Source of the DNA: Mucisphaera calidilacus
GTDB taxonomy: Bacteria > Planctomycetota > Phycisphaerae > Phycisphaerales > Phycisphaeraceae
Length of the DNA stretch: 32,000 bases
Reading direction: 5' to 3'
Assembly (NCBI RefSeq): GCF_007748075.1
Contig: NZ_CP036280.1
Coordinates: forward strand, 570,001-602,000
Shown: positions 930 to 28,007 of the stretch, in pieces
Numbering within the stretch: the stretch's first letter is position 1
Layout: each line of letters begins with the position of its first letter
Notes under the pieces: generated by a model
Told to the model about the DNA's origin: nothing
The model's input: the letters and a program-made list of their open reading frames with translations, nothing else
Databases searched by the model: none
Program-made: the position numbers and the translations under genes

Positions 930-931
930 GC

Positions 932-9038: not shown

Positions 9039-9041
9039 GAC

Positions 9042-12180: not shown

Positions 12181-12208
12181 CGATGAAAACCTCTGTCTGA
12201 AAGGAAGG

Positions 12209-12362
12209 CAGATACACCCGACCCATGCCGGATCTGACACAAACCAGATTCTATGTCATAAGTCAGATCGCGTGTATCCCCCGTTTCCCCGTAGATACGC
12301 CGCAGATCTCGAACAGATATAAAACGCTGCAGAGCAGATCGTTGAATGCAATAGCATCAGAT
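12209..12362 (+). repeat. array of seven same-strand CAGAT(C/A/T/G) pentamers in the divergent GH127 / GH38 control region
   Basis: CAGAT starts at 12209, 12245, 12264, 12303, 12314, 12335 and 12358. Opposite-strand copies (ATCTG) lie at 12232-12236 and 12460-12464. Confidence 0.6.
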
Positions 12363-12624: not shown

Positions 12625-15447
12625 ATGGGCGTAAAAACACCCCCTAAACCCATCGCCTGGCCCACCTACACGCCTCAGCGGCTCTCATCCTCCGCACAGA
12701 AGGCCGCCCTCTACGTCCTCTCAAGCCACTGGGACCGTGAGTGGTACCAGACCTTCGAAACCTTCCGCTACCGCCTCGTCAACCTCCTCGACGACGTCCT
12801 CGCCCGCCAGGACAGCGGAGAGATCGACGGACCCTTCTACTGCGACGGACAGGCCATCATCCTCGAGGATTACCTCGATATCCGGCCCGATGAACGCCAA
12901 CGCATCGCCGCACGCCTCCAGAACCGACAACTCGTCGCGGGGCCCTGGTACGTCCTGCCCGACGAGTTCCTCGTCTCCGGCGAATCCCTCATCCGCAACA
13001 TCCAGATCGGTCGCGAACTCGTCGAATCCCTCGGCGGACGCCCCTCCGACTGCGGTTTCCTCTGCGACCTCTTCGGCAGCAACGCCCAGATGCCCCAACT
13101 CCTCAAGGCCTTCGGCATCGAGGTCGCCTACGTCTGGCGCGGCACCAACCACCACGACCAGAGACTCCTCTGGTGGGTCGGCGCCGACGGCACACGCATC
13201 CCCAGCTACCGCTTCGGAACCAATGGCTACTGGGGATACGCCGTCAACGTCCGCGGCCACTGCGACCACGAAGATCACATCGAAGCCGAAAAGACCCTCC
13301 CCGAGCGATTCTGGGAGTACGTCGAAAAAGAAGCCGCCGCCACACCGATCGACGCCGTCCTCGTCTTCGACGGCGCCGACCACGCCGGCTTCGACCCCCA
13401 TGCCTATAGCCAACTCAAAGCCCTCGCCGGCTCCGAGCACGGCCACGACTACGACATATGCCACGTCGAACTCGACGACCACGCCGCCGAGATCCTCCGC
13501 CACACCGACCGCATCACCACCGAGGTCCACGGCGAGCTCTACGAGTCAGCCAAACACCCCTTCGACCTCGACCAGCAGGCACTCGTCGGCGGAACCCTCG
13601 CCAGCCGCATCCACATCAAACAGTTCAACGCACGCTGCGAATGGCTCCTCACACGCTGGGCCGAGCCCGCAGCGACCCTCGCCACATGCCGCCTGGGCGA
13701 CCGCTACCCCGCCGACTTCCTCAAACGCGCCTGGAAACACCTCATCCAGAACCACCCCCACGACTCCATCTGCGGGTGCAGCATCGACCGCGTTCACGAG
13801 GACATGATCTACCGCTTCAACCAGTGCGAGGACCTTGCCGAGCAGGTCACCCAGAACGCACTCCGCCACCTCGCCGAGGCCGCCGTCGGCAGTCCGGGCG
13901 TCCCCGAAGACGAAACACGCATCGTCGTCTTCAACCCACTGCCCGAAACACTCTCGGCCGTCGTCGACGTCGACGCCCTTATCCCCGACTGGAAACAACC
14001 GCCCAACGGCGGACAACCCGCCAAAGAACGGGGCCTCCCCGCGACCCCTCACGACGAACAAGGCAACCCCATCCCCTTCCAGGCGCGAAGCCTCTCGCCA
14101 ATCACCCTTCAACTCGAAACCCACAAGCACCGCGCCCCACGCTCTTACGAGGCACGCACGCTCGGACTCAGCATGCCCCTCGAACTCCCGCCCCTCGGCT
14201 GGAAAACGATCAGCCTCCGCAAGGCCAACGTCCACTGGATCCGCACCCCACGCTCCGAATCCCTCGTCCACGACGAACGAACCCTCCAGAACCAGCACCT
14301 CACCCTCAACGTCCAGTCCGACGGCACCCTCTCACTCACCGACCGCAAGACCAACGCCACCTACAACCGCCTGCTCACCCTCGAAGACGGCGCCGACGTC
14401 GGCGACGGCTGGCGCTACATCGCCCCCGCCAACGACACCGTCTCCTACACAGGCGGCAACTGCACCGGCATTACCGTCCTCGACGACGGACCCCACCTCG
14501 GACGCATCGAGATCCGCTGCCAACTCATCGTCCCCGCTCGCTACGACCGCGAGACCGCCGAACGGTCCCAACGCACCGTCACCATCGACGTCACCCACCG
14601 CGTCGCCCTCCGCGCCGACGCCCGACATGTCGAGGTCGAAACCACCATCAACAACACCGCCGAAGACCACCGCCTCCGCGTCCTCTGCCCCGTTGAAGCC
14701 CGCACCGACCACTACTGGACCGACGCACCCTTCGACACCGCGCGACGACCGATCGCGCTCAAGCCCGATCAGCACACCTGGCGCGAGCCCGAACTCGAAA
14801 CCAAGCCGCAGCAGGCATGGACCGCCGTCGCCGACGCCAACCGGGGGCTCGCCCTCGTGGCCGAGGGACTCCGCGAAACCGCCGTCCTCGACCGGCCCGA
14901 CCGCGCCATCGCCCTCACCCTCCTCCGCGCCACCCAAAAAACCGCCTTCACCAGCGGCGAACCCGGCGGCCAGCTCCCCGGCGAACACACCTTCCGCTAC
15001 TGGATCACCCCCGCCGAAGAAAAACCCGACGCCGCCGAGCTCCACAACCTCGCCACCCTCCTCAACGCTCGCGTCCGCTCCGTCAGCCTCCTGCCCGGCA
15101 TCCACGCCCGGGGCAGCGGATACCCCGTCGGCCCCGACACGTCGCCTACCGCCCCAGGCATCGCCATCACGGGGCCCGCACGACTCTCAGCCCTCCAGGT
15201 CCGCGGCGACGAACTCGAAATCCGCCTCTTCAACCCCCTCGACACGCCCGCCTCCGGCACCATCCAGCTCCCCGAACCGCAGAAAAACCCGGGGCAGCCG
15301 CCCGCGGCACGCTCCGTCTCGCTCACAGGCACCACCCTCGAACCCATCGACGTCGAACAGGGCCGCATCGCCATCGAACTCAGCCCCAAACAGATCATCA
15401 CCCTCCGTGTCACCGGCCTCATCCAGAACCCTGTGCACAGCAATTGA
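12625..15447 (+). CDS. GH38 alpha-mannosidase family protein, no signal peptide
   Basis: 'YVLSSHWDREWYQTF', 'GPWYVLPDEFLVSGESLIRNIQIG' and 'NHPHDSICGCS' are typical GH38 N-domain/linker motifs. 940 aa. A GAGG Shine-Dalgarno sequence lies 7 nt upstream. Confidence 0.85.
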   Translation: MGVKTPPKPIAWPTYTPQRLSSSAQKAALYVLSSHWDREWYQTFETFRYRLVNLLDDVLARQDSGEIDGPFYCDGQAIILEDYLDIRPDERQRIAARLQNRQLVAGPWYVLPDEFLVSGESLIRNIQIGRELVESLGGRPSDCGFLCDLFGSNAQMPQLLKAFGIEVAYVWRGTNHHDQRLLWWVGADGTRIPSYRFGTNGYWGYAVNVRGHCDHEDHIEAEKTLPERFWEYVEKEAAATPIDAVLVFDGADHAGFDPHAYSQLKALAGSEHGHDYDICHVELDDHAAEILRHTDRITTEVHGELYESAKHPFDLDQQALVGGTLASRIHIKQFNARCEWLLTRWAEPAATLATCRLGDRYPADFLKRAWKHLIQNHPHDSICGCSIDRVHEDMIYRFNQCEDLAEQVTQNALRHLAEAAVGSPGVPEDETRIVVFNPLPETLSAVVDVDALIPDWKQPPNGGQPAKERGLPATPHDEQGNPIPFQARSLSPITLQLETHKHRAPRSYEARTLGLSMPLELPPLGWKTISLRKANVHWIRTPRSESLVHDERTLQNQHLTLNVQSDGTLSLTDRKTNATYNRLLTLEDGADVGDGWRYIAPANDTVSYTGGNCTGITVLDDGPHLGRIEIRCQLIVPARYDRETAERSQRTVTIDVTHRVALRADARHVEVETTINNTAEDHRLRVLCPVEARTDHYWTDAPFDTARRPIALKPDQHTWREPELETKPQQAWTAVADANRGLALVAEGLRETAVLDRPDRAIALTLLRATQKTAFTSGEPGGQLPGEHTFRYWITPAEEKPDAAELHNLATLLNARVRSVSLLPGIHARGSGYPVGPDTSPTAPGIAITGPARLSALQVRGDELEIRLFNPLDTPASGTIQLPEPQKNPGQPPAARSVSLTGTTLEPIDVEQGRIAIELSPKQIITLRVTGLIQNPVHSN

Positions 15448-15646
15448 CCATGACAGATGCACAGTCACACAGCCTTGAGCGGGTTAGACTCCCGGCCTGA
15501 CACAGACAGTTTTATCGAATCGCGAATCGTCTATAAACGCTTTATAAGAAAGGTATAAGACAAATACGGCGAAACATGCCCCGGGCAGGCCTGTCCTGAT
15601 ATGCCTGCTGAAAGGGCCAGAATTCACGCGAATACGTGAAAATGAG

Positions 15647-15674
15647 TTGACAACGCCGCCATCTGCCTTATAAC
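15647..15674 (+). promoter_or_regulatory. sigma70-like promoter of regulator 1: TTGACA-16 nt-TATAAC, with the -10 ending 6 nt before the ATG
   Basis: TTGACA at 15647-15652 and TATAAC at 15669-15674, with the ATG at 15681 and no Shine-Dalgarno sequence. ATCTG (15661-15665) and CAGAT (15674-15678) bracket the -10 as an inverted pair. Confidence 0.5.
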
Positions 15675-15680
15675 AGATAT

Positions 15681-16814
15681 ATGAGCCTGCTGGAACTCAA
15701 CAACAACTCCGACACGCCCCTCGTGCAGCAGATTCAGACGAATCTCCGCTCACGCATCCTGCGTGACGAGTTCCCCCCCGGCTACAAGCTCCCCAGCATC
15801 CGCCAGCTCAGCCATGACCTCGGCTGCTCCACCGGCATCGTCGAACGCGCTGTCTCCACACTCACCGCCGAGGGCCTGCTCAAGTCCGAGCCCCGACGAG
15901 GTGTCTACGTCCGCAAGCCCCGCGAAAAACGCGTCAAGTCCAAGGACATCGCCCTCATCCTCCCCGGACTCCGGCTCGAGCACATGGCCAGCATGAGCGG
16001 AGGCGTCCACGCAGCCCTCGCCGGGTCCGACTACCGACTCATCATCCAGTCCGCCGACAACGACTTCGACGACGAAATCCACCTCCTCGAATACCTCGCC
16101 CACGACAACCTCGTCGGCGTCGTCATCTGCCCGCCCACCGCCGACTCCTACGCCGAGCCCATCAAGGAGTTCGTCAGCCGACGCGAGATCCCCCTCGTCC
16201 TCGCCACGCACCGGCTCGTCGGCCTCTCCAGCGTCGACGCCGTCGCCATCGACGAGTTCGAGCACGGCCGCGCCGCCGTCGACTACCTGCTCAGCAAAGG
16301 ACACCGCGAGATCGCCCTCATCGGGGGACACGGGCTCTCCCTCTCCAGCCGGCAGACCCTCGAGGGCATCGCCGCGGGCCTCCGACGATACCGCCTCGCC
16401 ATGTCCGACCTCCACAAGATCGACGTCGACGTCCTCGACCTCAACGACGAAGAGCCCTGGCTCAACGGACAGGTCAGCACCGAACGGTTCCTGCGCGAAC
16501 ACAACCCGGGCATCACCGCCATCCTCTCGCTCGGCAACTACAGCACCATCGGCGCCTACCGCGCCGTCCAGAGCCTCGGCCTCAGCATCCCCGACGATAT
16601 CTCCATCCTCAGCACCGGAAGCGACCTCCAGGCCTTCGCCCTGCTCCAGCCCAGCATCACCGTCTTCACCGACCAGCTCCACGCCACCTGCGAGCGGGCC
16701 ACCTTCCGACTCCTCCAACGCATCGAAAACCCCGGCATGCAGCCCGAGGCCATCCAGATACCGCCACAGCTCATCGAACGCGAAAGCGTTCGGAAGATTC
16801 CCGTCTCGAAGTAA
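15681..16814 (+). CDS. AraR-type chimeric regulator (GntR winged-HTH + LacI/PBP1 sugar-binding domain), copy 1
   Basis: N-terminus 'LPSIRQLSHDLGCSTGIVERAVSTLTAEGLLKSEPRRGVYV' is a GntR HTH. The remainder ('DIALILPG...VGVVICPP...IPLVLA...GHREIALIGG') is a LacI-type periplasmic-binding fold. Confidence 0.85.
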   Translation: MSLLELNNNSDTPLVQQIQTNLRSRILRDEFPPGYKLPSIRQLSHDLGCSTGIVERAVSTLTAEGLLKSEPRRGVYVRKPREKRVKSKDIALILPGLRLEHMASMSGGVHAALAGSDYRLIIQSADNDFDDEIHLLEYLAHDNLVGVVICPPTADSYAEPIKEFVSRREIPLVLATHRLVGLSSVDAVAIDEFEHGRAAVDYLLSKGHREIALIGGHGLSLSSRQTLEGIAAGLRRYRLAMSDLHKIDVDVLDLNDEEPWLNGQVSTERFLREHNPGITAILSLGNYSTIGAYRAVQSLGLSIPDDISILSTGSDLQAFALLQPSITVFTDQLHATCERATFRLLQRIENPGMQPEAIQIPPQLIERESVRKIPVSK

Positions 16815-16914
16815 GTCAACAGGCGGTTCCCGTGTCTCGCCGCCTGATCGGTTCCCGTCAACAAGAACGTTTCGTCTCAACGAATCAACCACAGCATCGA
16901 GAAGGCTCATCATC

Positions 16915-17769
16915 ATGACCAACCAAACCCACCCCTACCGTCCCAAGGGCTTCACCCTCATCGAGCTCCTCGTGGTGATCTCCATCATCGCGCTGCTCAT
17001 CGGCATCCTCCTGCCCGCTCTCGGAGCCGCACGCGAAACCGCCCGCGCCATCCAGTGCTCGTCCGGCGAACGACAGATGGGCGTCGCCTTCTACGTCTAC
17101 GCCGAGGACTACGACCAGTACTGGCCCTCGGGTTACATCGAGCCAGGCACCGGCTTCCCCGGAATCGTCGGCTACTACCAGTGGGACATCAACGGCATCG
17201 CGCCCTACGCCCTCGGCGGCCAGAGCTTCCCGCCCACGATGACTGACCGCTACGCCAACTACGCCGATGCCCTCGAAGGCTCGATCATGGAGTGCCCCAA
17301 CGCGGCCTACGACCGAAGCTATGAGAATCAGGCCGTCCCCCAGGAGGAACTCGTCCCGAACCTCCGCATCATGGGGCGCGGCTACGGCTACAACATCGAC
17401 ATGCATGCACTGCCCGAGTTCATCGACCCCAATCAGTACAACCCTCGTGGCAACAACATCATCCCCGGCTGGCAGCAGTTCAAACGCCCCAACGCCATCA
17501 AGTACACCAGTCAGACCATGCTCCTCTCCGACACCGAGTACAACCCCGAGCCGGCTACCGGCAACGACATGGCCAAGCTCGGTTTCAACCAGATCCTCGA
17601 CTGGATGATCCCCGTCGCCTCCAAGCGGCACAGCGACGCCCTCAACATCCTCTACGTCGACGGGCACGCCTCACGCGTCTCCGCAGGCGACGAAGAACTC
17701 TTCGAGGCCGGTTCAGGCGTCCAGAACGCCGACAACATGGCCTGGCGACGCTTCATGGTCGGTCAGTGA
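16915..17769 (+). CDS. prepilin-type N-terminal cleavage/methylation protein of the H-X9-DG (DUF1559) family
   Basis: 'KGFTLIELLVVISIIALLIGILLPAL' is the class III signal and pseudopilin helix. C-terminal 'HSDALNILYVDGH' fits H-x9-DG exactly. Confidence 0.9.
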   Translation: MTNQTHPYRPKGFTLIELLVVISIIALLIGILLPALGAARETARAIQCSSGERQMGVAFYVYAEDYDQYWPSGYIEPGTGFPGIVGYYQWDINGIAPYALGGQSFPPTMTDRYANYADALEGSIMECPNAAYDRSYENQAVPQEELVPNLRIMGRGYGYNIDMHALPEFIDPNQYNPRGNNIIPGWQQFKRPNAIKYTSQTMLLSDTEYNPEPATGNDMAKLGFNQILDWMIPVASKRHSDALNILYVDGHASRVSAGDEELFEAGSGVQNADNMAWRRFMVGQ

Positions 17770-17827
17770 GAACCGTTCCTGACTCGGTACCGAATCAACG
17801 GACCTCGCCTCGCGAAAGACCGTGACG

Positions 17828-18292
17828 ATGAAAAAACAAGCTGTTGCCAAAATCGTGATCTCGCTGCTCGTCATCGCCGCTGGTGCCTACCTCATCTTCT
17901 CCAGCGTCAACGACACCGGCGGCATCCCCGACCAGGCCTACTTCTACGACCTCAACACCCAGCAGATCGTCCTGATGCCCAAGACCACCGCCGCCCCCGT
18001 CGAGCTGGACAGCGGACCGCACAACGGCGAGCCAGCGGGCGTCAAGGCGCGGGTCTACGCGTGCAACGGCGTCGAGGAACTCCTCTGGCTCGAACGATAC
18101 CCGCTCCACCTCCGCGATAAAGTCGCCAACGGACCCATGATGTCCGCACCCCTCGAGGTCAGGCACCCCGATGACCCCGACGGAAAGTGGGTCCTGAAAA
18201 ACTCCCCCGAAGGCCAGGAACTGACATCCACACGCTTCAAGGAACTCCGCGACAAGGCCGGCGGCGGCGTGCCGAGGGAGGTCTTCCCCTGA
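17828..18292 (+). CDS. hypothetical N-terminally anchored protein (no family recognised)
   Basis: ATG 17828 (alternative GTG 17822). It has one TM/signal-anchor (AKIVISLLVIAAGAYLIF) and high third-position GC. It follows the H-X9-DG gene after about 55 nt. Confidence 0.5.
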   Translation: MKKQAVAKIVISLLVIAAGAYLIFSSVNDTGGIPDQAYFYDLNTQQIVLMPKTTAAPVELDSGPHNGEPAGVKARVYACNGVEELLWLERYPLHLRDKVANGPMMSAPLEVRHPDDPDGKWVLKNSPEGQELTSTRFKELRDKAGGGVPREVFP

Positions 18293-18484
18293 TCAACAAA
18301 GGCTGAAGACAGGCTTCGGAACGCGAGAGATGAAAACCGGGTGAGTTGCCCGGTCTCCGAAACCTGGATAAAGCCCAACAGGTTCGTCTGTAACGCCTCG
18401 TGAATTAAGCTTGTTTCGTGAACAGTTGTTTTGTTTTGCAAACCGTGTCCCATGCATCATGATCTCTATTAGGAGGAAATCGCC

Positions 18485-19765
18485 ATGTCATCGACTCGCA
18501 ACCGCCGTTTCGCCCTGCCCACCGCGGCACTCATCGCCGTCATCGCCAGCCCGGCCCTCGCCGACTTCAACGATGACTTCACCACCACCGGCATCCTCGC
18601 CGACAACTACGGCTTCTTCGGCCTCGCCACACTGCCCGATTCCGAAACCGACCCCACATCCTTCTCCGACGAGTTCGGCGCAGCCGACGACTACGTCTTC
18701 GGCGACGCCTACACCTCAGGATCCAACACCTACGGCAACAGCAGCTTCGACCTCGACGAATCCCTCGGACAGGTCGACATGACCGTCTCGGGCGGTCAGG
18801 GCGGCCACTTCCAGTTCGTCCGGCTCTCCCGCAGCGCCGACGAGTCCAACTTCTTCGACCTCTCGCAGGGTGTCCAGCTCAAGATCATGTTTGGCGGCCT
18901 CGACGGGCAGTCCTGGATCTCCACGCCCCGCAACCCCATCGTCTTCGGTTTCGCCAGCACCGACAACAACCCCGAATTCCAGATCCAGATCGGCAACTTC
19001 GCCGGCAACGACTCCCTGCTCCGCGCCCAGGCCGACGGCGTTGACCTCCCCGGCCTCACCTACCCCGTCTCCAGCATCCTCGAAGCCTCCTACCCCCCGG
19101 TCAACGTCGCCTTCTTCGGCACCGAGGCCATCCTCAACATCGACGCCGACAGCTACAGCCTCATCATTAACCCCACCCACGACGCCAACCAGGGCTGGAC
19201 CGAGATGATCCCCGACACGCCCCACGGGCTGACGTTCGCCCCAGGTGAAGGCTCCATCCCCTTCTTTGAAGCGCGGCGTGTCTACGGCGGCGCCAACACC
19301 ACCCTCAGCGTCACCAACTTCTCCGTCACCGGCACCACCGTTGTCGTCGACCCCGGCTTGCCCGGCGACTTCAACGAGGACGGCGTCCTCGATTCACTCG
19401 ACATCGACCTGCTCTTCGCCAACCTCGGCGCTACCACCCCCTCCGACTACGACCTCAACGAAGACGGCACCGTCGACAACGCCGACGTTGACCTCCTCGT
19501 CGAAGGTGCCGACTACCTCAACTCCTTCTACGGCGACGCCAACACCGACCAGGCCGTTGACCTGCTCGACCTCTCGGCACTCGCCTCCAACTTCGAAGAA
19601 GTCGGCAAGCTCTGGGCCGATGGCGACTTCAACGGCGACGGATACGTCAACCTCCTCGACCTCTCCATCCTCGCCACCAACTTCGACCAGTCCAAGGCCG
19701 TACCCGAGCCCGCCTCCGTGGCCGTCCTCGGACTCATGGCCGCCGCACTCCGTCGTCGTGGCTGA
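18485..19765 (+). CDS. secreted protein: unrecognised beta-rich N-domain + 2 dockerin-like modules (4 EF-hand repeats) + PEP-CTERM anchor
   Basis: AGGAGG lies 8 nt upstream. Signal peptide ends ...ASPALA/DF. The repeats are 'GDFNEDGVLDSLDIDLL', 'DLNEDGTVDNADVDLL', 'GDANTDQAVDLLDLSALA' and 'GDFNGDGYVNLLDLSILA'. The C-terminus is 'VPEPASVAVLGLMAAALRRRG'. Confidence 0.8.
   Translation: MSSTRNRRFALPTAALIAVIASPALADFNDDFTTTGILADNYGFFGLATLPDSETDPTSFSDEFGAADDYVFGDAYTSGSNTYGNSSFDLDESLGQVDMTVSGGQGGHFQFVRLSRSADESNFFDLSQGVQLKIMFGGLDGQSWISTPRNPIVFGFASTDNNPEFQIQIGNFAGNDSLLRAQADGVDLPGLTYPVSSILEASYPPVNVAFFGTEAILNIDADSYSLIINPTHDANQGWTEMIPDTPHGLTFAPGEGSIPFFEARRVYGGANTTLSVTNFSVTGTTVVVDPGLPGDFNEDGVLDSLDIDLLFANLGATTPSDYDLNEDGTVDNADVDLLVEGADYLNSFYGDANTDQAVDLLDLSALASNFEEVGKLWADGDFNGDGYVNLLDLSILATNFDQSKAVPEPASVAVLGLMAAALRRRG
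19364..19765 (+). repeat. dockerin x2 + PEP-CTERM cassette, copy 1 (partner copy at 22450-22845)
   Basis: The roughly 130-aa C-terminal modules of the two proteins align end to end with one 1-aa gap, at roughly 60 % aa identity by eye. Long near-identical nucleotide runs include ttctacggcgacgccaac and gacctgctcgacctctc. Confidence 0.75.
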
Positions 19766-19796
19766 GCCGCAAACGATGACATGATTCTCCCCCTCC

Positions 19797-19816
19797 TGGG
19801 CCGGGAAACCGGCCCA
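19797..19816 (+). terminator. stem-loop TGGGCCGG-GAAA-CCGGCCCA after PEP-CTERM gene A (no U-tract)
   Basis: An 8-bp stem with a GAAA tetraloop, 31 nt after the stop at 19765. Confidence 0.4.
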
Positions 19817-19931
19817 TGGGGCTTCAAGGAAAACGGACGGCAGGGACGCTCATCAACCACAGAAAGAGGAATCGACCGACTCGCACTTCGTAACCCGGCT
19901 ACTCAGCCAGATTTAGGATTGGAGAAAGACC

Positions 19932-20744
19932 ATGAGCATGAACCTCAAGACAACCAGCGCCCTCCTGACCGTCGCCTTCGCGGCGACCACCGCATCCGCC
20001 AACTTCATGGACGACTTCGACAGCGTCGGCGAACTCGCCAACAACTACGGCTACTTCCACTTCGGCACCAACGAAGGCGGCGCAGGACTCGACGCCAACA
20101 CCTTCAGCAACGGCGCCAGCTTCGCGCTCGACGACGCCAACAGCAAAGTCAACCTCTACCTGCCCGACCCCGGCGGCTTCAACTTCCTCCGCCTAACACG
20201 CGGCATGGATGCGGAAAACCTCTACGACATGAGCCAGCCCGTCCAGCTCAGCGCCAAGGCCTCCGGACTCGATAACCTCAACTTCGACTCGATCCGCAAC
20301 CCCTTCGGGCTCGGCCTCGACTTCCCCGAGGGCACCAACCCCGATATCACCGTCAAGATCCAGCTCACCAGGAGCTACACCAACCCGCCCACCTCACGGA
20401 TCCAGGTCCAGGCCAACGACGGCTCGTCCTTCGATCTCCCCGGCGGCGCACAGCAGACCATCAACATCAATGTCCAGAACAAGGACATCGTCTTTGACAT
20501 CGACGCCGACAGCTACAGCCTCACCATCGGCAACACCGTCGTCATCCCCGATACCCTTCACGGCATCGTCTTCGACACCGCCGTCGGCGGCACGCCCTTC
20601 ATCGAAGCTCAGCACATCTTCGATGGCGGCGCCACCGACTTCTCCGTCGAGTACTTCGCCGGCACCGGCACCGCGATCCCCGAGCCCGCCTCACTCGCTA
20701 TGCTCGCCCTCGGCGGCATCGCGATGATCCGTCGCTCCGCCTGA
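19932..20744 (+). CDS. secreted PEP-CTERM protein carrying the same unrecognised N-domain as 18485..19765
   Basis: Signal peptide ends ...ATTASA/NF. It shares blocks with the upstream gene (NFMDDF.., LANNYGYF, IDADSYSLTIGNT, IPDTLHG..PFIEA). The C-terminus is 'IPEPASLAMLALGGIAMIRRSA'. Confidence 0.75.
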   Translation: MSMNLKTTSALLTVAFAATTASANFMDDFDSVGELANNYGYFHFGTNEGGAGLDANTFSNGASFALDDANSKVNLYLPDPGGFNFLRLTRGMDAENLYDMSQPVQLSAKASGLDNLNFDSIRNPFGLGLDFPEGTNPDITVKIQLTRSYTNPPTSRIQVQANDGSSFDLPGGAQQTININVQNKDIVFDIDADSYSLTIGNTVVIPDTLHGIVFDTAVGGTPFIEAQHIFDGGATDFSVEYFAGTGTAIPEPASLAMLALGGIAMIRRSA

Positions 20745-20761
20745 TCACGCTCGCCTCTCCA

Positions 20762-20789
20762 CCCGAGGTCTCCGAAAGGAGACCCCGGG
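20762..20789 (+). terminator. stem-loop CCCG-a-GGTCTCC-GAAA-GGAGACC-c-CGGG after PEP-CTERM gene B (no U-tract)
   Basis: A 7-bp core stem with a GAAA tetraloop, plus a 4-bp extension across one A/C mismatch. It lies 17 nt after the stop at 20744. Confidence 0.4.
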
Positions 20790-20865
20790 TCTTGCAACCA
20801 ACCCTCCAGACGTCACAAACCCGGTGACCAGAACCCTCCAGGAATCGATCAGTTAGGGGCTCCCC

Positions 20866-22845
20866 ATGACGCCGGCACGCAGTACCACCCGCATCGCAAT
20901 GGCCGCCTTCCTCACCTGCGCCGCGGCATCGACCGCCACCGCAGGACTCGGCACCAGCGCGCCCGCCAACCCGCTGCTCATGGGCGGCAACCAGAACTTC
21001 GCCAACTACGACAACCTCCTCAACAAAAACTCCTTCCTCGCCATGATCCGGGCACTCCAGATGCCCAACATGCGCTACATCGCCGGCAGCCCCGCCTCCT
21101 TCTGGGACGCGTTGAATGCCGAGTTTGTCCCCGAGCAGGAGATCCTCGATATCTGGCCCGACGCCTGGTTCGTCTCCAACGGCGCGAACGACTGGGTCAA
21201 CGGCATGCCCGCCTCCCAGTTCTCCGTCGACCGCATGGACGCCGCCATGGCCACCGCGGGTGTCTCCAACATCCAGTGGATCGCCAACCTCACCACCCGG
21301 GAAGACGATCAGGACGACCTCTTCACCTACCTCGACGCCCAGGGATACAACTACGATTACATCGAGGCCGACAACGAGGCCTTCTTCTGGGGCAGCGAGT
21401 TCGCCGCAGCCGGAGGCGGAACCGAGTACGGCAAACGCATCGCCAACAAGCTCGCTCCCACCGTCCGCGCCCTCAACCCCAACGCCAAGATCGGCGCCGA
21501 CTTCCGCAGCAACGAGTTCTTCACCGGCGAATCCGAGTCCGGCGGCTTCAACGCTAACTGGAACAGCAACCTCTACGGCCAGATCAACCGCAACGGCAAC
21601 GGGCCCCACTTCGACGCCATCATCCTCCACCACTACAAGATGGGCAGCGACGGACTCAGCGGCTACAGCACCGCCAACCGCCGACAGGCCTTCCTCGCCT
21701 TCCCCGAAGCCACCATCGAACGCGCCGCTCGCGTCGCCGAAGAAGACTACGGCGACCTGCCCATCTGGATCACCGAGTACAACGTCATCGCCTACAACGG
21801 CTCCGGCGGCGGCTCCAACGGCGAATGGATCCGATCCACACAGAACACCGGATGGAACGCCTTCTACCAGGCCGGCTTCTACCTCACCGCCTTCGCCAAC
21901 CCCGACGACATCGAACTCATGAACCACCACGCCGTCCGATCCGGCATCTGGGGCATGGCCAAGGAAATCAGCACCTCCCAGGCCGAACTCAACGCCACAG
22001 GCGTCATCTACGCCCACGTCACCGACATCCTCGTCGACGCCGAAGAAATGATGCCCGTCGAGCCCGACAACAACCCCGACATGAACATCACCATCGTCGG
22101 CGACAGCGACCTCAACGCCTTCCAGGCCGCCGCACTCTACGACCAGGACAGCGAAACCCTCAGCATCCTCGTCATGAACCGCGACGACGCCGCACACGAC
22201 TTCCAGCTCTCCGACTACGGGCTCTACTCCAGTCTCGACATCGTTACCTACCTCGCCGACGACCCCGACGCCAACGGCTACAAGACCGTCAGCCTCACCA
22301 GCAGGATCCCCCTCTACGAACAGGACGCCGCTCCCTTCCAGCCCACCACCTCGCAGCAATTCCTCGCACTCGGACAGCCGCTCGACATCGAACTCCCCGC
22401 CTTCTCCTTCTCCGTCCTCACCCTCAGCGGGCAGGAAGCGCCACTCGCCGGTGATCTCAACGGCGACGGCGTCGTCGATACCCTCGACATCAACGTCCTC
22501 TTCGACAACCTCGGCAGCTCCGACCCCTTCTACGACCTCAACCAAGACGGCTCCGTCGACAACGACGACGTCACCCTCCTTGTCGAGGGCGAAGACTTCA
22601 TCAATTCCTTCTACGGCGACGCCAACGGCGATCAGTCCGTCGACCTGCTCGACCTCTCCGCACTCGCCGCCGACTTCGACACCGCCGGCCACGAATGGGA
22701 GCAGGGCGACTTCAACGGCGACTCCGCCGTCAACCTCACCGACCTCTCCATCCTCGCGTCCAACTTCGGTAACACCAACGCCGTCCCCGAACCCGCCGCA
22801 GCAACACTCCTCCTCGCACTCGCCGCTATCCGACGCCGACGCTGA
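20866..22845 (+). CDS. secreted clan GH-A-like (TIM-barrel) glycoside hydrolase + 2 dockerin-like modules + PEP-CTERM
   Basis: It has a signal peptide. 'YIEADNEAFFWG' is a candidate acid/base NE and 'PIWITEYNV' a candidate nucleophile TE. A beta-sandwich follows, then a dockerin cassette very similar to that of 18485..19765. The C-terminus is 'VPEPAAATLLLALAAIRRRR'. Confidence 0.7.
   Translation: MTPARSTTRIAMAAFLTCAAASTATAGLGTSAPANPLLMGGNQNFANYDNLLNKNSFLAMIRALQMPNMRYIAGSPASFWDALNAEFVPEQEILDIWPDAWFVSNGANDWVNGMPASQFSVDRMDAAMATAGVSNIQWIANLTTREDDQDDLFTYLDAQGYNYDYIEADNEAFFWGSEFAAAGGGTEYGKRIANKLAPTVRALNPNAKIGADFRSNEFFTGESESGGFNANWNSNLYGQINRNGNGPHFDAIILHHYKMGSDGLSGYSTANRRQAFLAFPEATIERAARVAEEDYGDLPIWITEYNVIAYNGSGGGSNGEWIRSTQNTGWNAFYQAGFYLTAFANPDDIELMNHHAVRSGIWGMAKEISTSQAELNATGVIYAHVTDILVDAEEMMPVEPDNNPDMNITIVGDSDLNAFQAAALYDQDSETLSILVMNRDDAAHDFQLSDYGLYSSLDIVTYLADDPDANGYKTVSLTSRIPLYEQDAAPFQPTTSQQFLALGQPLDIELPAFSFSVLTLSGQEAPLAGDLNGDGVVDTLDINVLFDNLGSSDPFYDLNQDGSVDNDDVTLLVEGEDFINSFYGDANGDQSVDLLDLSALAADFDTAGHEWEQGDFNGDSAVNLTDLSILASNFGNTNAVPEPAAATLLLALAAIRRRR
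22450..22845 (+). repeat. dockerin x2 + PEP-CTERM cassette, copy 2
   Basis: See 19364-19765. Confidence 0.75.
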
Positions 22846-22875
22846 GACCGACCCGACACCTCCGACCAACCCCGT

Positions 22876-22903
22876 GACCCCGGTCAGCTCGCTGGCCGGG
22901 GTC
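22876..22903. terminator. hairpin GACCCCGG-(t CAGC tc GCTG g)-CCGGGGTC between convergent genes (possible bidirectional terminator)
   Basis: An 8-bp outer stem plus a 4-bp inner stem, between the stop at 22845 (+) and the stop at 22990 (-). Confidence 0.4.
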
Positions 22904-22989
22904 GCCGCATAAACACCCTTGCGATGTCGTTCCGCATCCCGTGCAAGATGCCCCACGCGGACATCAGCAGGCCACGCTCATCTCACCGC

Positions 22990-24837
22990 TCAGCCCGACG
23001 CCTTGGGCGCCACACCCGAAGACCCCTTCGGATACAGCTTGTCCACGCCCACGAAGAACATCCGCAGCGACACCGCCGCCACCACGGCGCCGACGATCAT
23101 GAAGTGCCACAACGCCAGCAGAAGGCCCATGAACGCAAAGACCAGGCCCAGGATCGATCCCATCATGCTCAACGCCGTCACGCTCAACCAGAGCAGCGAG
23201 TCCGACGCGTCACGCTCCAGATCCGCCGCACGACGGATCGGCCCCCAGAAACCGAACGGACGCATCCGCTTGTAGAAAGCCACCAGCTTCTCCTTCGACT
23301 CCGGCGGGGTCAGCAGGATCACGATCACCGAGACCGTCGTGCTCGTGCACACGATCAGAAACGTCCGCAACGCCCAGAGTGTGTCGTTCGTGATCTCAAC
23401 CTCGAACCACACCAGCAACGAACGCGTCCACTCGTTCACATGCCCCGTCAGCATCAGCGTCGTGATCACCACCGAGCACGCCTGCGCCGACAACTCGCCC
23501 CAGATGTTCACACGCCACCACACGAAACGCAGCAGCTTCACCATGCCCACCGACTGAACCACGTTGATCGCGAACATGAACAGGTACAGGATGTCGTTCA
23601 CCATGAACCCGATCACCGACGCCAGCAGCGTGATGAACACCATGTACCAGCGTGAGGCCGTCACGTAGTGATGCTCGTCACGGCCCGGCGCCAGGTACGC
23701 CTTGTAAATGTCGTTCGTGAAGATCGACGTCGAGTTGTGAATGTTCGTATCGAACGAGGACATGAACGCCGACAGAAAGCCCGCCGCCATCAACCCCATC
23801 AGGCCGATCGGCATGTACTGACGCACCAGCGCCGGGAACACCATCTCGTGGTCCGCGATCGCCTGACCGTCCGGACCCACCGCCGCCGGAAACTGCTCCA
23901 GCAGGTACGCGTCACTGATCAGGAACAACCCCGCAAGACCGCAGATGTAGTAAGGCCAGTTGCGGAACGCGAAGTTCAGGATGCCCGTGTACAACCCCGT
24001 GTAAATGACCTCACGCTCGTCCTTCAGACAGAAGCTGCGCTGGTTGTGCGGGTTGTAGTTCCCCTGCTCCATGATCGCGAACACGATGTAGAAGATCAGC
24101 ACCCAGATCACCGTTGGCATCAGCGATAACAGCTTCTCCGAGTCGGCGTGGCTCTCCAACGCCGTCCGCAGACCGATCGGACCACCCATGTCAATGAAGA
24201 TAAACGTCAACAGCATGTAGGTCGCGAACAACGCCACCAGCACCTCGAACAGGTCCGTCCACACCACACCGTGCACGCCCGAGGCCGCCGAATAAACAAG
24301 CGTCACCAAAATCAGGACCGCGATGATCACGATGCTCGTGTCCATCGTCATGCCGAGAAACAGGAAGTCAGGCGGCAGGCCAAGCAGCACCGTCACCACC
24401 TTCTTCATACCCACCAGGCCGATCGCCGCCCACATCGCGGCCACGATGATCCCGTACAGCACCGAGTCGAACGTCCGCGCCACGTCCGCGCCACGCCCGT
24501 GATAACGCGCGTGATAAAACTCCATCTGTGTCACGAACGCCGCACGACGCCAGAGCCGGACGAAAAACACCGACGAGATCGCCATCGTGAAGATGCTCCG
24601 CCACGTGAACCACAGCCCACCCAGACCGTCCTGGCGGATCTTCCGCGAGTCCGAAAGCATCGTCGACGCGTTCAAACCTGTCGCCAGAACCGACGCGCCC
24701 GCCAGCCACCACGGCATCTTCCGGCCCGCCAGAATGAACTCGTCCGTGTTGCTGCCCGCACGCTTCGCGAGCTTCGCGCCCAGAACAAGCAGACCGACCA
24801 TGAAACTGACCACGACGGTCCAGTCAATCCAGTGCAT
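22990..24837 (-). CDS. sodium:solute symporter (SSS/SSF) family permease
   Basis: 615 aa, polytopic. The N-terminus 'DWTVVVSFMVGLLVLGAKLAKRAGSNTDEFILAGRKMPWWLAGASVLAT' is the typical SSF TM1-TM2 region. It lies 24 nt downstream of the preceding minus-strand gene, with a GAAGGA Shine-Dalgarno sequence. Confidence 0.85.
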   Translation of the reverse strand: MHWIDWTVVVSFMVGLLVLGAKLAKRAGSNTDEFILAGRKMPWWLAGASVLATGLNASTMLSDSRKIRQDGLGGLWFTWRSIFTMAISSVFFVRLWRRAAFVTQMEFYHARYHGRGADVARTFDSVLYGIIVAAMWAAIGLVGMKKVVTVLLGLPPDFLFLGMTMDTSIVIIAVLILVTLVYSAASGVHGVVWTDLFEVLVALFATYMLLTFIFIDMGGPIGLRTALESHADSEKLLSLMPTVIWVLIFYIVFAIMEQGNYNPHNQRSFCLKDEREVIYTGLYTGILNFAFRNWPYYICGLAGLFLISDAYLLEQFPAAVGPDGQAIADHEMVFPALVRQYMPIGLMGLMAAGFLSAFMSSFDTNIHNSTSIFTNDIYKAYLAPGRDEHHYVTASRWYMVFITLLASVIGFMVNDILYLFMFAINVVQSVGMVKLLRFVWWRVNIWGELSAQACSVVITTLMLTGHVNEWTRSLLVWFEVEITNDTLWALRTFLIVCTSTTVSVIVILLTPPESKEKLVAFYKRMRPFGFWGPIRRAADLERDASDSLLWLSVTALSMMGSILGLVFAFMGLLLALWHFMIVGAVVAAVSLRMFFVGVDKLYPKGSSGVAPKASG

Positions 24838-24861
24838 TTAATATTGTCCTTCTTAGCTAAA

Positions 24862-27171
24862 TCAGCGGCCGTCAGAGCCGAGGATGGTGATGGAATAGCC
24901 CGGAAGACGCAGCGACGAAGACAGCCGCAGCTCCGCACGATCAAGCAATTCAGGCGAACTCATGTACAGCGTCGGCGCACCCGAGTACTGGAGCCCCACG
25001 TCCTCGGTGATCCCCAGCGAACGCACGTCCACCTCCACCGCGTCAGGCGTCAGGTTCAGCAGCACGCCCCGCGGCCCGAGCTCCCCGCCCGAATCCGAGA
25101 AACGCCAGCCGCGGATCAGCGGCAGAGGCGACGACCCGCCCTCAACCTCCAGCTCAACCTCCCCACCGAAATCAACCGACGCCACACGGTCACGGCCGTT
25201 CGCCGCGTGACCGAACAACGACATCACCAGGCCCGTCGGCGTGACGGCAAGAGGTTCGGCCTTGGCGTCGGCGTCCTTGACGAGAAGGCCGTCGAAGGTG
25301 GACCCGTTGCGGTCGTGCAAGGCGTTGAACAGGTTGCCGCCGTACGGATTGTGGAAGCACAAGAGCGTCACGTTCTCGTCCTCGAGAAACACCGACAGCA
25401 TCGAGGACAACGCCAGGCCCTGCGCCCACGTGTGACGCACACCACCCATCCGGTCGTTCACGTTGAACTCCGTCAGCCACAGGTCATAAGGCGTAAGCTC
25501 CGGGAAGCTGTGACGGATGTGCCCCCACTCCTCGTGCGGCACCAGCATCATGAACTGAACCGCCTCCGGATCCTGCAACAGACGCGCCTGCTCGTTCTGC
25601 TGCTCCGCACTGCCCCACGGCCGCGGGCCGCCCGGCAGCAGCCCCACACCCGCGTACGGGTGAAGCGTCACCGCATCCACCTCATCCGAAAGGTGCGGGA
25701 TCACGTGCTGATTCCACGTCCGACGACGCTCGCTCACGTGAGGCGGACCGCCGTCCGAACCGATCACCGCAACCTTCGCCTCCGGAAACTCGGCCTTGAT
25801 CGCCGACGTCCACACGTTGCACGCCTCCGCGTAAGCCTCAGGCGTCGGGAACTTCACGTGCACCAGCGGCTCCGCACCAATCCCGAAAAAATACTCGTTC
25901 CCCAACTCAACGTACTTCACCGGCATCCCCAGTCGCTCCGCGCGACGAAGCTGCCCAAGCTGATTCTCGAGGTCCTTCGTCACCATGTTCAGCATGAACA
26001 CAGGCGTGAAACCCAGACGCTTCTGACCCTTCGCGTAATTCTCGAGCGTGTACGTCCGCGAGTCCTCCACCATCCCCTGAACCCAGTGCATCATCCGATC
26101 ACGCGGCGCGTTCCGGTCAAGCCACCCCGTGTCCCAGTCCCAGTAATTCCCGATCGTGCCGGCCGGGTATCGGAGGTTGCCCAGGTTGAGTTGTCGCATC
26201 GCGTCGGAGAGGTCGCGGTTGTCCCAGAACTGCGACACCGCCGTCAGGTTGCCGTTCATCCCCACGTAGTCGCGGGCGATCTCTCGCTCCTCGCCGAGAC
26301 GCGCCGTCACGCGGCTCGGCGGACGAACCAGCGGATACGCCGCCCAGGGCGACGACGACAACTGCTCCTCAACATCCGTCCCCAGGCTCGCCTGAGCCAA
26401 TCCCCCCGAGACCTGATCCGCCATCAGCCGCGCAACACCAATCCGGTACGGATCATTCCCATACAGCTTCATCGCGCGCACCGTCGGCAGCAACGCCGTC
26501 TCGGTCAGCGATGACGACGACCAGTCAATCCCGTGATCCACCTCCGCCGCCCCCAGCAGCGTCTCGCCATCAAGCGTCAGACGCACCGAAGCGTCATCAA
26601 CCTCAAGCCGGAGCGTCTTGCCCTCCAGCGAGCTCGGACCCTCCGTCTGACCCTCATAAATCACCTCCGTCTCACCGCCCGCACGCAACTCCACACGCGC
26701 CGACACCCGACCACGCCGCCCACGCTCCTTCACACAACCCACGATCGCCTGAATCGACGGATCGCCTCCCTGACCCGTAAACCCGAAGCCGATCTGCGCC
26801 GCCGCACGGTCGACATACTGAAACGTCGGGTACGACGAAACACTCACGTCGATCGACGCCTCAGAACCCGGCCCCAGACCCACCTTGTACGTCCGGTGCG
26901 TCAGACTCGTTTGGCCAAACCCCGGCCCCTCGCCGCCTCCCTTCGGCTGCGACGCCACCAGCATCACACCACGCTCGCCCGATGCCTTCTGCACGCGATT
27001 CGACATCGGACCGATCGGCCAACGGCCAACCTTCCAGTCCGCCTCCACCAGCTGCACGTCGGCGTAGTGCCCGAAGTGCACCTCCAGCAGCGCGCCACCA
27101 ACCCACGAACCACACATCAACAACACAACAACAGCGAGCGCACCACAACGGCTCATGCAGGTCTGCAGCAT
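24862..27171 (-). CDS. secreted two-part protein: lectin/LamG-like N-domain + clan GH-A-like hydrolase (distant paralog of 20866..22845), no PEP-CTERM
   Basis: Signal peptide (CGALAVVVLLMCGSWVGG). 'LRLEVDDASVRLTLDGETLLG' looks like a beta-sandwich. The catalytic half has 'LRYPAGTIGNYWDW', 'YVELGNEYFFG' and 'LWLTEFNVND'. GAAGG lies 7 nt before ATG 27171. Confidence 0.7.
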   Translation of the reverse strand: MLQTCMSRCGALAVVVLLMCGSWVGGALLEVHFGHYADVQLVEADWKVGRWPIGPMSNRVQKASGERGVMLVASQPKGGGEGPGFGQTSLTHRTYKVGLGPGSEASIDVSVSSYPTFQYVDRAAAQIGFGFTGQGGDPSIQAIVGCVKERGRRGRVSARVELRAGGETEVIYEGQTEGPSSLEGKTLRLEVDDASVRLTLDGETLLGAAEVDHGIDWSSSSLTETALLPTVRAMKLYGNDPYRIGVARLMADQVSGGLAQASLGTDVEEQLSSSPWAAYPLVRPPSRVTARLGEEREIARDYVGMNGNLTAVSQFWDNRDLSDAMRQLNLGNLRYPAGTIGNYWDWDTGWLDRNAPRDRMMHWVQGMVEDSRTYTLENYAKGQKRLGFTPVFMLNMVTKDLENQLGQLRRAERLGMPVKYVELGNEYFFGIGAEPLVHVKFPTPEAYAEACNVWTSAIKAEFPEAKVAVIGSDGGPPHVSERRRTWNQHVIPHLSDEVDAVTLHPYAGVGLLPGGPRPWGSAEQQNEQARLLQDPEAVQFMMLVPHEEWGHIRHSFPELTPYDLWLTEFNVNDRMGGVRHTWAQGLALSSMLSVFLEDENVTLLCFHNPYGGNLFNALHDRNGSTFDGLLVKDADAKAEPLAVTPTGLVMSLFGHAANGRDRVASVDFGGEVELEVEGGSSPLPLIRGWRFSDSGGELGPRGVLLNLTPDAVEVDVRSLGITEDVGLQYSGAPTLYMSSPELLDRAELRLSSSLRLPGYSITILGSDGR

Positions 27172-27199
27172 CGATCAGCCTTCAGTATGTCGAATCCAG

Positions 27200-27225
27200 A
27201 AAAACCCCGGGCAACACGCCCGGGG
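27200..27225 (-). terminator. intrinsic terminator after the small PEP-CTERM gene (minus strand: CCCCGGGC-gtgtt-GCCCGGGG-TTTTT)
   Basis: An 8-bp all-GC stem, a 5-nt loop and a T5 tract on the minus strand. It lies 15 nt after the stop at 27240 and 28 nt before ATG 27171. Confidence 0.7.
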
Positions 27226-27239
27226 CATCAAAGTCTTCA

Positions 27240-27911
27240 TCAACGACGACGCATCCCGCAAAGCCCCAGCAGCGCCAGACCCGCGGCCAGGCTGCTCGGC
27301 GTCGGAACCGGAGCGGCTTCAAAGGTCACGAAGCGCGGGCGGTACTTCGTTTCGGGGCCGGCGGCCATGATCAGCTTCTCGCCAGCGGCGAGGACGGTGT
27401 TCGCGTTGAAGCTGTATTCGATCTTGCCGTTGCCGCCACCCGGGATCACGAGCGACGCTGCACCGATCGATACGTCGATGGATTCGCCGTCACCAAGGAG
27501 CGTCACCGCGGTCGAGGTCAGCGTCACGTCGATCGGGTTCATCGCGCTGTCGAAGAACGAGAAGGCGATGGCCTCGTCGTAGACCTGGCCGTTGCCAGTG
27601 TTGATCTGATCGATAGCGCCCCCGTCGTCGCCACCGACATTCGGGCCAGTTGAGTTGATGCCCGCGCCATTGTTGCCGCCACCACCATTGTTGGTCAGAT
27701 CGACCGTGCCCCCGACGTTCAGCGCATTGCCGAGGGCTTCGACGACGACCTTCACACTCGGGTCGGGGGTCAACGTGACGGACGGCTGGCCGTCACCCGT
27801 AACGAGGCCCGCATACTCGCTGCCCGAAATCAGGCTGACCTCCATCGTCGCGCCAAGCGACGCCGAAGCCGCAAAACACCCAACCAGAGCACACTGCGTT
27901 AAACGAATCAT
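27240..27911 (-). CDS. small secreted Gly/Asn-rich PEP-CTERM protein (V-P-T-P variant)
   Basis: ATG 27911 is preceded by a perfect AAGGAGG, so the track's 28004 start is rejected. Signal peptide ends ...AASASLGA. The C-terminus is 'VPTPSSLAAGLALLGLCGMRRR'. Confidence 0.75.
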   Translation of the reverse strand: MIRLTQCALVGCFAASASLGATMEVSLISGSEYAGLVTGDGQPSVTLTPDPSVKVVVEALGNALNVGGTVDLTNNGGGGNNGAGINSTGPNVGGDDGGAIDQINTGNGQVYDEAIAFSFFDSAMNPIDVTLTSTAVTLLGDGESIDVSIGAASLVIPGGGNGKIEYSFNANTVLAAGEKLIMAAGPETKYRPRFVTFEAAPVPTPSSLAAGLALLGLCGMRRR

Positions 27912-28007
27912 CTCATTCCTCCTTACAAAGAAAACCAGAATGGCCAAAGTGAATCCATGACATGAAAAAACCAGATACACAAGGGCACACAGCCCTGAAA
28001 CCACAAA

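Follow-up and report, generated by a model that had tools for sequence, protein, structure and literature searches.

How do Planctomycetota hold a polysaccharide at the cell surface while enzymes act on it? A locus of Mucisphaera calidilacus raises this question, and we analysed it in a window of 32,000 nucleotides (contig NZ_CP036280.1, positions 570,001 to 602,000 of the forward strand; coordinates below are positions in this window unless a comparison locus is named). Planctomycetota of the class Phycisphaerae degrade algal polysaccharides, and the surface holding and processing of the polymers are poorly understood. To our knowledge, Phycisphaerae have no SusC/D systems. Two adjacent genes of the window, A and B, encode PEP-CTERM proteins that share one domain. 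This domain is a new, very small sequence family inside a well-known fold class and on a well-known anchor type, and it adjoins, or is fused on either side of, one enzyme superfamily. We give an even chance to the reading that A and B are non-catalytic, exosortase-anchored glycan-binding partners of the co-encoded hydrolase, which resembles clan GH-A of the glycoside hydrolases (GH). Fetched comparison loci are labelled L001, L006, L008, L009, L011 and L012, and matches of the profile search are labelled P00xx. Homology, architecture, secretion and anchor signals, fold class, rarity, the conserved neighbourhood and the fusions are treated as established in what follows.

Two anchored proteins share one domain

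Both open reading frames (ORFs) are present as first annotated, and the two architectures then described for them, with dockerin modules in A and a bare domain and tail in B, were right. Lengths are in amino acids (aa).

18485..19765, + strand: ORF A, 426 aa
18485-18562, + strand: signal peptide of A (aa 1-26), cleavage after ALA
18563-19339, + strand: jelly-roll domain of A (aa 27-285)
19367-19675, + strand: two dockerin modules of A (aa ~295-397)
19697-19762, + strand: PEP-CTERM tail of A (aa 405-426)
19932..20744, + strand: ORF B, 270 aa
19932-20000, + strand: signal peptide of B (aa 1-23), cleavage after ASA
20001-20675, + strand: jelly-roll domain of B (aa 24-248)
20676-20741, + strand: PEP-CTERM tail of B (aa 249-270)

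BLASTP aligned A and B over 295 columns with 33% identity (E 3e-31) and matched their C-terminal tails separately, which bears out the proposal that one domain is duplicated in the two proteins. The shared domain is real, but it measures about 259 aa in A and about 225 aa in B, not the 240-280 aa proposed for it; the A domain has four insertions relative to the B domain. The blocks LA(D/N)NYG(F/Y)F, F(Q/N)F(V/L)RL(S/T)R, (N/D)IDADSYSL, IPDTxHG and PF(F/I)EA and the last strand before TGT, all listed by the initial annotation, occur in A and B and are kept in homologues from other genomes. Its first motif kept the DDF core and needed correction ahead of it, where the form is A-(D/N)-F-x-D-D-F and not (A/N)-F.

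Both N-termini are hydrophobic and end in an AxA site that abuts the conserved DFxDDF start, and this register is kept across homologues. These signal peptides were recognised by reading the sequence, not by a predictor, and no lipobox Cys is present in them. The C-terminal sequences VPEPASVAVLGLMAAALRRRG (A) and IPEPASLAMLALGGIAMIRRSA (B) each combine a P-E-P motif with a hydrophobic helix and a cluster of Arg. PF07589 gives 18.1 bits for A and 20.2 bits for B, both under its cut-off of 20.7, and TIGR02595 gives 16.6 for B, which passes the cut-off of 16, and 14.1 for A, which is under it. Five of the nine domain-family members match PF07589 (best E 9.7e-7), and the NCBI name of the Phycisphaera mikurensis orthologue, WP_014435991.1, is PEP-CTERM sorting domain-containing protein, with no further annotation. 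With this C-terminal signal and an N-terminal signal peptide, A and B can be classed by sequence as PEP-CTERM proteins. An exosortase gene of the EpsH/XrtA type was not found among the scanned ORFs of the 32-kb window. The layout of signal peptide, lineage-specific passenger and tail is that of the curated PEP-CTERM families of NCBIfam (XDP1, LEVG, QFxxD, THxN and others); unlike the members of those families, A and B match in the tail only, with scores far under the cut-offs, and the passenger is uncovered.

Dockerin_1 (PF00404) matches A in two stretches (E 2.6e-10, 40.8 bits against a cut-off of 22.9), and four D-x-[ND]-x-D-x-x-x-[DN]-x-x-D loops are readable there, features that place the C-terminal half of A among the type I dockerins. 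No cohesin was detected among the scanned ORFs of the window. For other Planctomycetes a cohesin-dockerin system, the "planctosome", has been proposed (PMC6461901).

A very small sequence family

The initial annotation could not place the domain in a named family, and three databases agree with it. Pfam left the domain unmatched in all nine members even at E<=10, NCBIfam left it unmatched in A and B, with PEP-CTERM models reaching the tails only, and the family profile had no match among PDB chain sequences at E<=10. Neither the domain nor the locus was described in the literature searched.

Word-index searches of 5.8 billion clusters with B and with the domain of A returned only P0002 and P0003. 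An exhaustive HMMER profile scan of 1.84 billion representatives at 50% identity gave 12 matches, of which about ten are credible: A, B, P0002, P0003 and P0005 to P0010 (P0005, P0006, P0007, P0008, P0009 and P0010). The two weakest, P0011 and P0012, look spurious and were rejected (a repetitive protein, and an Obg-like N-terminus with a fragment of the domain). Details of the members outside the window are as follows.

P0002: from a metagenome-assembled genome (MAG) labelled Phycisphaeraceae, locus L001
P0005: Phycisphaera mikurensis WP_014435991.1, locus L009
P0006: locus L008
P0007: dockerin-type repeats ahead of the PEP-CTERM tail, as in A
P0008: truncated sequence
P0009: divergent member
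P0010: 759 aa, jelly-roll domain at residues 477-677

Both members with a named source, P0002 and P0005, are from Phycisphaeraceae. A scan of a genome contig collection returned solely the Phycisphaeraceae MAG already found, two scans of metagenome contigs gave no additional members, and a six-frame search of the window and the fetched loci gave no further strong copies. Three proteins were rejected as relatives. The PEP-CTERM protein at 27240..28004 (− strand), considered as a fourth copy, is unrelated (hhalign probability 5.6%), and the resemblance of L1_292 and L9_243 is confined to the tails. In a neighbour-joining tree (no bootstrap), B clusters with P0002, P0003 and P0005 (46-49% identity) and A lies outside, with 38% identity to B. 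Since B is closer to the orthologues of other genomes than to A, the two are old paralogues, and a recent tandem duplication was rejected.

Fold and conserved residues

The AlphaFold2 model built from four sequences had a predicted local distance difference test score (pLDDT) of 69, and that built from nine sequences reached 84.7 with a predicted template modelling score (pTM) of 0.85. The latter is all-beta with 16 strand elements and one short helix, and the two independent runs agree on the all-beta architecture. When both models were compared with the PDB by Foldseek, all of the listed top-50 matches were ConA-like jelly rolls (probability 1.0, template modelling score (TM) 0.35-0.61). The early guess of a ConA/LamG-like fold was therefore a good one, and the modelled domain has the two-sheet jelly roll of the ConA-like lectins and glucanases. 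The best E-values belong to alginate lyases of polysaccharide lyase (PL) family 7 (E 5e-6, TM up to 0.61); GH16 glucanases rank shortly after them. L-type lectins are also present, namely Emp46p/Emp47p, the lectins of soybean and pea and YwfG, a surface protein that binds mannose, and further matches are kappa-carrageenase, a PL28 ulvan lyase, the accessory domain of GH43 xylosidases and the Hc domain of botulinum toxin. Because the matches have identities of 8-15% and root-mean-square deviations (rmsd) of at least about 6 Å, the similarity is at the level of the fold only. The model supports the fold class but yields no family assignment.

Conservation was read in B-domain numbering, in which residue 1 is Ala23 of B. 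Only D5, R68, G106, H188, G189 and F220 are invariant in all nine aligned sequences. The seven core members share the polar invariants D77, Q80, D169, D171, S172, S174, D185, T186 and H188, and R68, Q80 and H188 are all invariant among them. When stand-alone and fused forms are taken together, no residue is invariant: R68 is replaced by H in the fusion protein of the window, H188 is lost in L12_305, and D169 and D171 are lost in P0009 and P0010. Y173, the Tyr of DADSYS and the sole conserved Tyr of the core, is L, F, Q or V in other members.

The domain might itself be catalytic, representing a new family of jelly-roll lyases or glycoside hydrolases akin to PL7, PL28 and GH16 and displayed on the surface as the first cutter of a polymer whose degradation the neighbouring exo-enzymes complete. 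The Foldseek ranking (PL7 first, then GH16, kappa-carrageenase and PL28), the invariance of R68, Q80 and H188 in the core and the enzyme-like size of a domain encoded within an island rich in sulfatases and carbohydrate-active enzymes all speak for this alternative, yet we consider it unlikely. PL7 and GH16 enzymes are the nearest structural neighbours and of similar size, and we take the terminal strands of GH16 enzymes to resemble the N-terminal [F/W]xD[D/E]F..G strand and the C-terminal strand of the domain. At the level of sequence the likeness ends: Pfam at E<=10 finds neither PL7 nor GH16 nor another enzyme family, and the conserved columns contain neither R...QxH...Y, the PL7 pattern, nor ExDxxE, that of GH16. 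Membership of PL7 (an example is PL7C of Paradendryphiella salina, 8p6o/8pc8) was rejected because neither Pfam nor PDB sequences match and because there is no QxH and no conserved Tyr in the C-terminal third of the domain. Membership of GH16 was rejected since Pfam gives no match and the nearest pattern, x-I-D-A-D-S, has neither of the two outer Glu residues and does not persist in P0009 and P0010. Variation at Y173 also counts against a catalytic role, as does the fact that no candidate catalytic residue is kept in all divergent and fused copies. This loss of "catalytic" residues means that a binding or accessory module fits better than a catalytic centre.

The polar invariants of the seven core members sit mainly in loops and hairpin turns of the model and not in mid-strand. 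Lectins typically show this arrangement, cleft enzymes less so. Compared with the L-type lectins (the mannose-binding YwfG of Lactococcus, PDB 7yl4/7yl5, and Emp46p/Emp47p), the domain has the same ConA-like two-sheet jelly roll of about 220-230 aa (TM about 0.5, probability 1.0), acidic residues and a His conserved in loops and, as A and B are predicted to be placed, display at the cell surface. It differs in an identity of 12-15%, in the PEP-CTERM anchor and in the tiny size of its family. It does not belong to the L-type lectins by sequence, as neither the nine members against Pfam nor the family profile against PDB sequences gave a match at E<=10. A cohesin-like role was set aside: no cohesin structure is among the listed top-50 Foldseek matches, and in loci of other genomes dockerins are missing from the family members and from the neighbouring enzymes alike.

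A putative partner hydrolase and the fused forms

The gene downstream of B encodes the putative enzymatic partner of the domain, and a second member of the same enzyme family is found on the other strand as part of a 769-aa protein.

20866..22845, + strand: partner gene, 659 aa; signal peptide, two dockerins and PEP-CTERM tail (aa 527-659)
20950-22428, + strand: clan-GH-A-like region of the partner (aa 29-521), with invariant DNE and TE(Y/F/W)N motifs
24862..26340, − strand: second member of the enzyme family in the window
26458..26925, − strand: probable third, divergent copy of the domain (aa ~83-238) within the 769-aa protein 24862..27171
L008 8353..9891, L009 10915..12513 and L011 10001..11578: members of the enzyme family in comparison loci

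The sole PDB-sequence similarity of the N-terminal region of the 659-aa protein is a weak one to GH51 arabinofuranosidases (E 1e-4). Pfam gave nothing above threshold for the enzyme family, one member having a sub-threshold match to Glyco_hydro_cc. The weak GH51 similarity and the DNE and TE(Y/F/W)N motifs, which we take to be catalytic by analogy with clan GH-A, lead us to call this uncharacterised region clan-GH-A-like. Homologues of the enzyme are few. The enzyme gene adjoins the domain gene in the window, in L008 and in L009, with 35-60% identity between the enzymes. In L009, from P. mikurensis, a 532-aa homologue follows P0005 (35% identity, E 1e-83), and in L008 a 512-aa homologue (E 6e-69) lies directly upstream of P0006, near a GH38 gene and a sulfatase gene.

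Domain and enzyme are also found in one chain, in both orders. P0010 has the enzyme-type domain at the N-terminus and the jelly roll at the C-terminus. The 769-aa protein (24862..27171, − strand) has the domain copy at the N-terminus and a clan-GH-A-like barrel at aa ~277-764, and its C-terminal half is homologous to P0010, to the 659-aa partner (W_659) and to the 512-aa enzyme of L008 (L8_512). The third copy is probable: it scores 17.6 bits in hmmsearch and 87% probability in hhalign (E 4e-6), and 90.6% (E 1.3e-6) when aligned together with its L012 homologue. A pair of ORFs in L012 (7535..8452, 305 aa, and 8605..9834, 409 aa) corresponds to this fusion protein. The 409-aa ORF is 50% identical to its residues 361-764, and the 305-aa ORF is 23% identical to its N-terminal region. 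Either the gene is truly split here, or a frameshift in the MAG has produced two ORFs.

Because the domain is separate from one and the same enzyme superfamily in some proteins and joined to it in others, it could also bind protein, as a detachable accessory or anchoring subunit that tethers an otherwise free clan-GH-A-like hydrolase to the cell surface or completes its active site, the latter being the part played by the C-terminal ConA-like domain in GH43 beta-xylosidases. Consistent with this, the enzymes of L008 and L009 have no anchor of their own and the adjacent jelly-roll protein has the PEP-CTERM tail, and the Foldseek matches include such ConA-like domains from GH43 xylosidases. The two-domain GH43 beta-xylosidases (2exh, 3c2u, 7k1r) likewise have a jelly roll attached to a glycosidase, comparable to P0010 and 24862..27171, but here the partner is of the TIM-barrel type and weakly GH51-like, and the domain also occurs as a free-standing anchored protein. 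We rate such protein binding as rather improbable. The enzyme of the window owns a PEP-CTERM anchor and dockerins, so that a tether is unneeded, P0002 in L001 has no GH-A-like neighbour, and homologues of the enzyme occur in Gammaproteobacteria (Simiduia and Microbulbifer), whereas the named sources of the domain family are all Phycisphaeraceae. In the marine gammaproteobacterium Simiduia agarivorans (L011) the enzyme homologue is flanked by GH125 and by a ROK kinase with MFS transporters, and no relative of the domain from this species was among the matches of the exhaustive HMMER scan. Homologues of the enzyme stand beside GH38 or GH125 in Phycisphaerae and in S. agarivorans. The family of the partner enzyme is a candidate new glycoside hydrolase family acting on mannoside-containing glycans.

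A and its partner enzyme share more than their neighbourhood. The dockerin and tail part of A (aa 292-425, 19358..19762) is 64% identical to that of the 659-aa protein (aa 527-659, 22444..22842), whose gene is about 3 kb away, and the N-terminal domains of the two proteins are unrelated. In the segment that aligns, the dockerins of P0007 and of the 659-aa enzyme share only 34% identity. The high identity within the window, set against the distant dockerins of P0007, suggests local module exchange or gene conversion and not an ancestral feature.

A conserved gene cassette

The genes upstream of A belong to a cassette that recurs in other genomes, and enzyme genes lie ahead of it.

10432..12240, − strand: GH127-like protein, weak Pfam match (E 1e-4)
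12625..15447, + strand: GH38 alpha-mannosidase (Pfam)
15681..16814, + strand: regulator with GntR-type helix-turn-helix (HTH) and LacI-type sugar-binding domain, heading the cassette
16915..17769, + strand: pseudopilin-like protein with prepilin-type N-methylation signal and DUF1559 (H-X9-DG)
17822..18292: ORF of 156 aa, a single transmembrane helix at its N-terminus, situated after the pseudopilin-like gene and before A
Window 15681..22845, L001 8126..13448, L006 3..5052 and L009 7914..12513: the recurring cassette at four loci of Phycisphaeraceae type

The order of the cassette is GntR-HTH/LacI-type regulator, H-X9-DG/DUF1559 prepilin-like protein, PEP-CTERM protein and enzyme. Homologues of the regulator head or flank it in L001, L006, L009 and L012, and a homologue of the pseudopilin-like gene is directly upstream of the domain gene in L001, L006 and L009. 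In L006 an ADP-ribosylglycohydrolase-like gene stands between the regulator, on the minus strand, and the remaining cassette. The 156-aa ORF of the window has no Pfam match and no counterpart in the syntenic loci, and is followed by A, B and the 659-aa enzyme. Both A and B are preceded by Shine-Dalgarno-like sequences. A promoter and terminator scan of 15400..23100 gave nothing exceeding the shuffled expectation. The intergenic region of A and B contains, at 19799..19816, a hairpin with a perfect stem of 7 GC base pairs and a GAAA loop (GGGCCGG GAAA CCGGCCC) and no T-run behind it, which could be an RNA stabiliser or a partial terminator.

The window also holds five sulfatases, an SSF transporter and a second regulator. 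Its GH38 enzyme is 43-45% identical to the GH38 enzymes beside the family locus in L009 (43%) and in L012, and in L009 both GH38 and GH125 adjoin the pair of domain and enzyme genes. The GH127-like protein is 37% identical (E 2e-115) to a 564-aa protein of S. agarivorans (L011 15747..17441), so that these two distant bacteria have at least two uncharacterised enzymes in common at these loci.

As a class, PEP-CTERM proteins are associated with exopolysaccharide (EPS) and biofilm phenotypes; for example, loss of cyanoexosortase B lowers cell-associated polysaccharide (PMC12188702). A and B might thus be structural proteins of the surface or matrix, acting in biofilm, floc or EPS retention, with an incidental link to the catabolic genes. 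The position between regulator and hydrolase is kept in four independent loci, two fusions to the hydrolase type exist and no EPS-biosynthesis genes are found within the cassette, and on these grounds a matrix role seems very unlikely.

The initial annotation had compared A and B with SusD and the surface glycan-binding proteins (SGBPs) of Bacteroidota. The functional analogy stands, since here too a proposed surface-tethered binder is encoded beside enzymes and a regulator, as SusD and the SusE/F-type SGBPs are in polysaccharide utilization loci. The analogy does not extend to the fold, the anchor or the transporter. The fold of SusD is helical, whereas that of the domain is all-beta; the anchor is of the PEP-CTERM type and not lipid; the companion is an H-X9-DG pseudopilin-like protein; and no TonB-dependent (SusC-type) transporter was found in the window.

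A putative glycan binder at the cell surface

Surface location, glycan binding, the ligand and the binding site are what we infer from these data. A and B would be secreted and tethered to the cell surface by the PEP-CTERM/exosortase anchor. Their jelly-roll domain would act as a non-catalytic module, similar to a lectin or a carbohydrate-binding module (CBM), that grips a polysaccharide or oligosaccharide and presents it to the hydrolase 20866..22845 and to the GH38, GH127-like and sulfatase enzymes. The loop residues D169, D171, S172, S174, D185, T186 and H188, together with R68, D77 and Q80, may form the binding site. The target is probably a glycan that contains alpha-mannoside and is possibly sulfated, and expression might be controlled by the upstream GntR/LacI-type sugar-sensing regulator. 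A catabolic setting under a regulator of the sugar type (GH38, GH125, sulfatases and the SSF transporter) supports glycan binding. The neighbouring GH38 and GH125 enzymes appear to indicate alpha-mannoside glycans at least as strongly as sulfated polysaccharides in general.

Several points weigh against glycan binding by A and B. PL7 alginate lyases head the Foldseek list of the model by E-value and GH16 glucanases are close behind, and R68, Q80 and H188 are residue types used by jelly-roll lyases. A length of about 225 aa is that of a whole ConA-like enzyme or lectin and not of a typical small CBM. The adjacent enzyme in L001 is of the BNR/sortilin type and not GH-A-like, so the partnership does not hold at every locus. 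That the invariant residues would cluster in the predicted structure is taken from strand order alone, and the ligand assignment comes solely from the neighbouring genes. Substrate capture, as first suggested for A and B, is therefore plausible and is strengthened by the neighbourhood and the fusions, but the structural neighbours of the domain include enzymes besides lectins.

Should a defined glycan prove to be its ligand, the domain would become the first of a new CBM or lectin family, and it would also indicate the substrate of what may be a new glycoside hydrolase family; should it prove catalytic, it would establish a new family of lyases or hydrolases. With about ten members known, the domain family is of narrow scope. 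The case rises above routine through two links, one to a hydrolase family that is uncharacterised and the other to a conserved cassette of regulator and pseudopilin, and through the availability of a cultured host. The locus is a concrete unit of regulator, pseudopilin-like protein, PEP-CTERM jelly-roll protein and uncharacterised hydrolase, and this unit is present in the cultured type strain P. mikurensis (WP_014435991.1). A bolder proposal, which we regard as a long shot, is that domain and enzyme are the two halves of an undescribed Phycisphaerae-type unit for degrading glycans at the surface. In such a unit a new lectin/CBM or jelly-roll lyase family would form an obligate pair with a glycoside hydrolase family, also new, whose substrates are alpha-mannoside or sulfated algal glycans; the pair would be anchored by exosortase and co-transcribed with the H-X9-DG pseudopilin, as the counterpart of the Bacteroidota Sus paradigm in the Planctomycetes-Verrucomicrobia-Chlamydiae (PVC) group.

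Other features of the window

A second cassette, convergent with the first, lies on the minus strand at 22990..29138 and includes the fusion protein 24862..27171.

28008..29138, − strand: second regulator, 33% identical to the first
27240..28004, − strand: 254-aa PEP-CTERM protein with an unrelated passenger domain
22990..24837, − strand: SSF transporter, downstream of the fusion protein

Many of the long ORFs that overlap one another near the left edge of the island (54..3916) are likely artefacts of the GC content of 64%. Type II secretion genes are probable in the same stretch, with a GspL-like gene at 1441..2781 and weak T2SS-K and T2SS-C signals upstream of it, and a TPR protein is encoded at 3299..3916.

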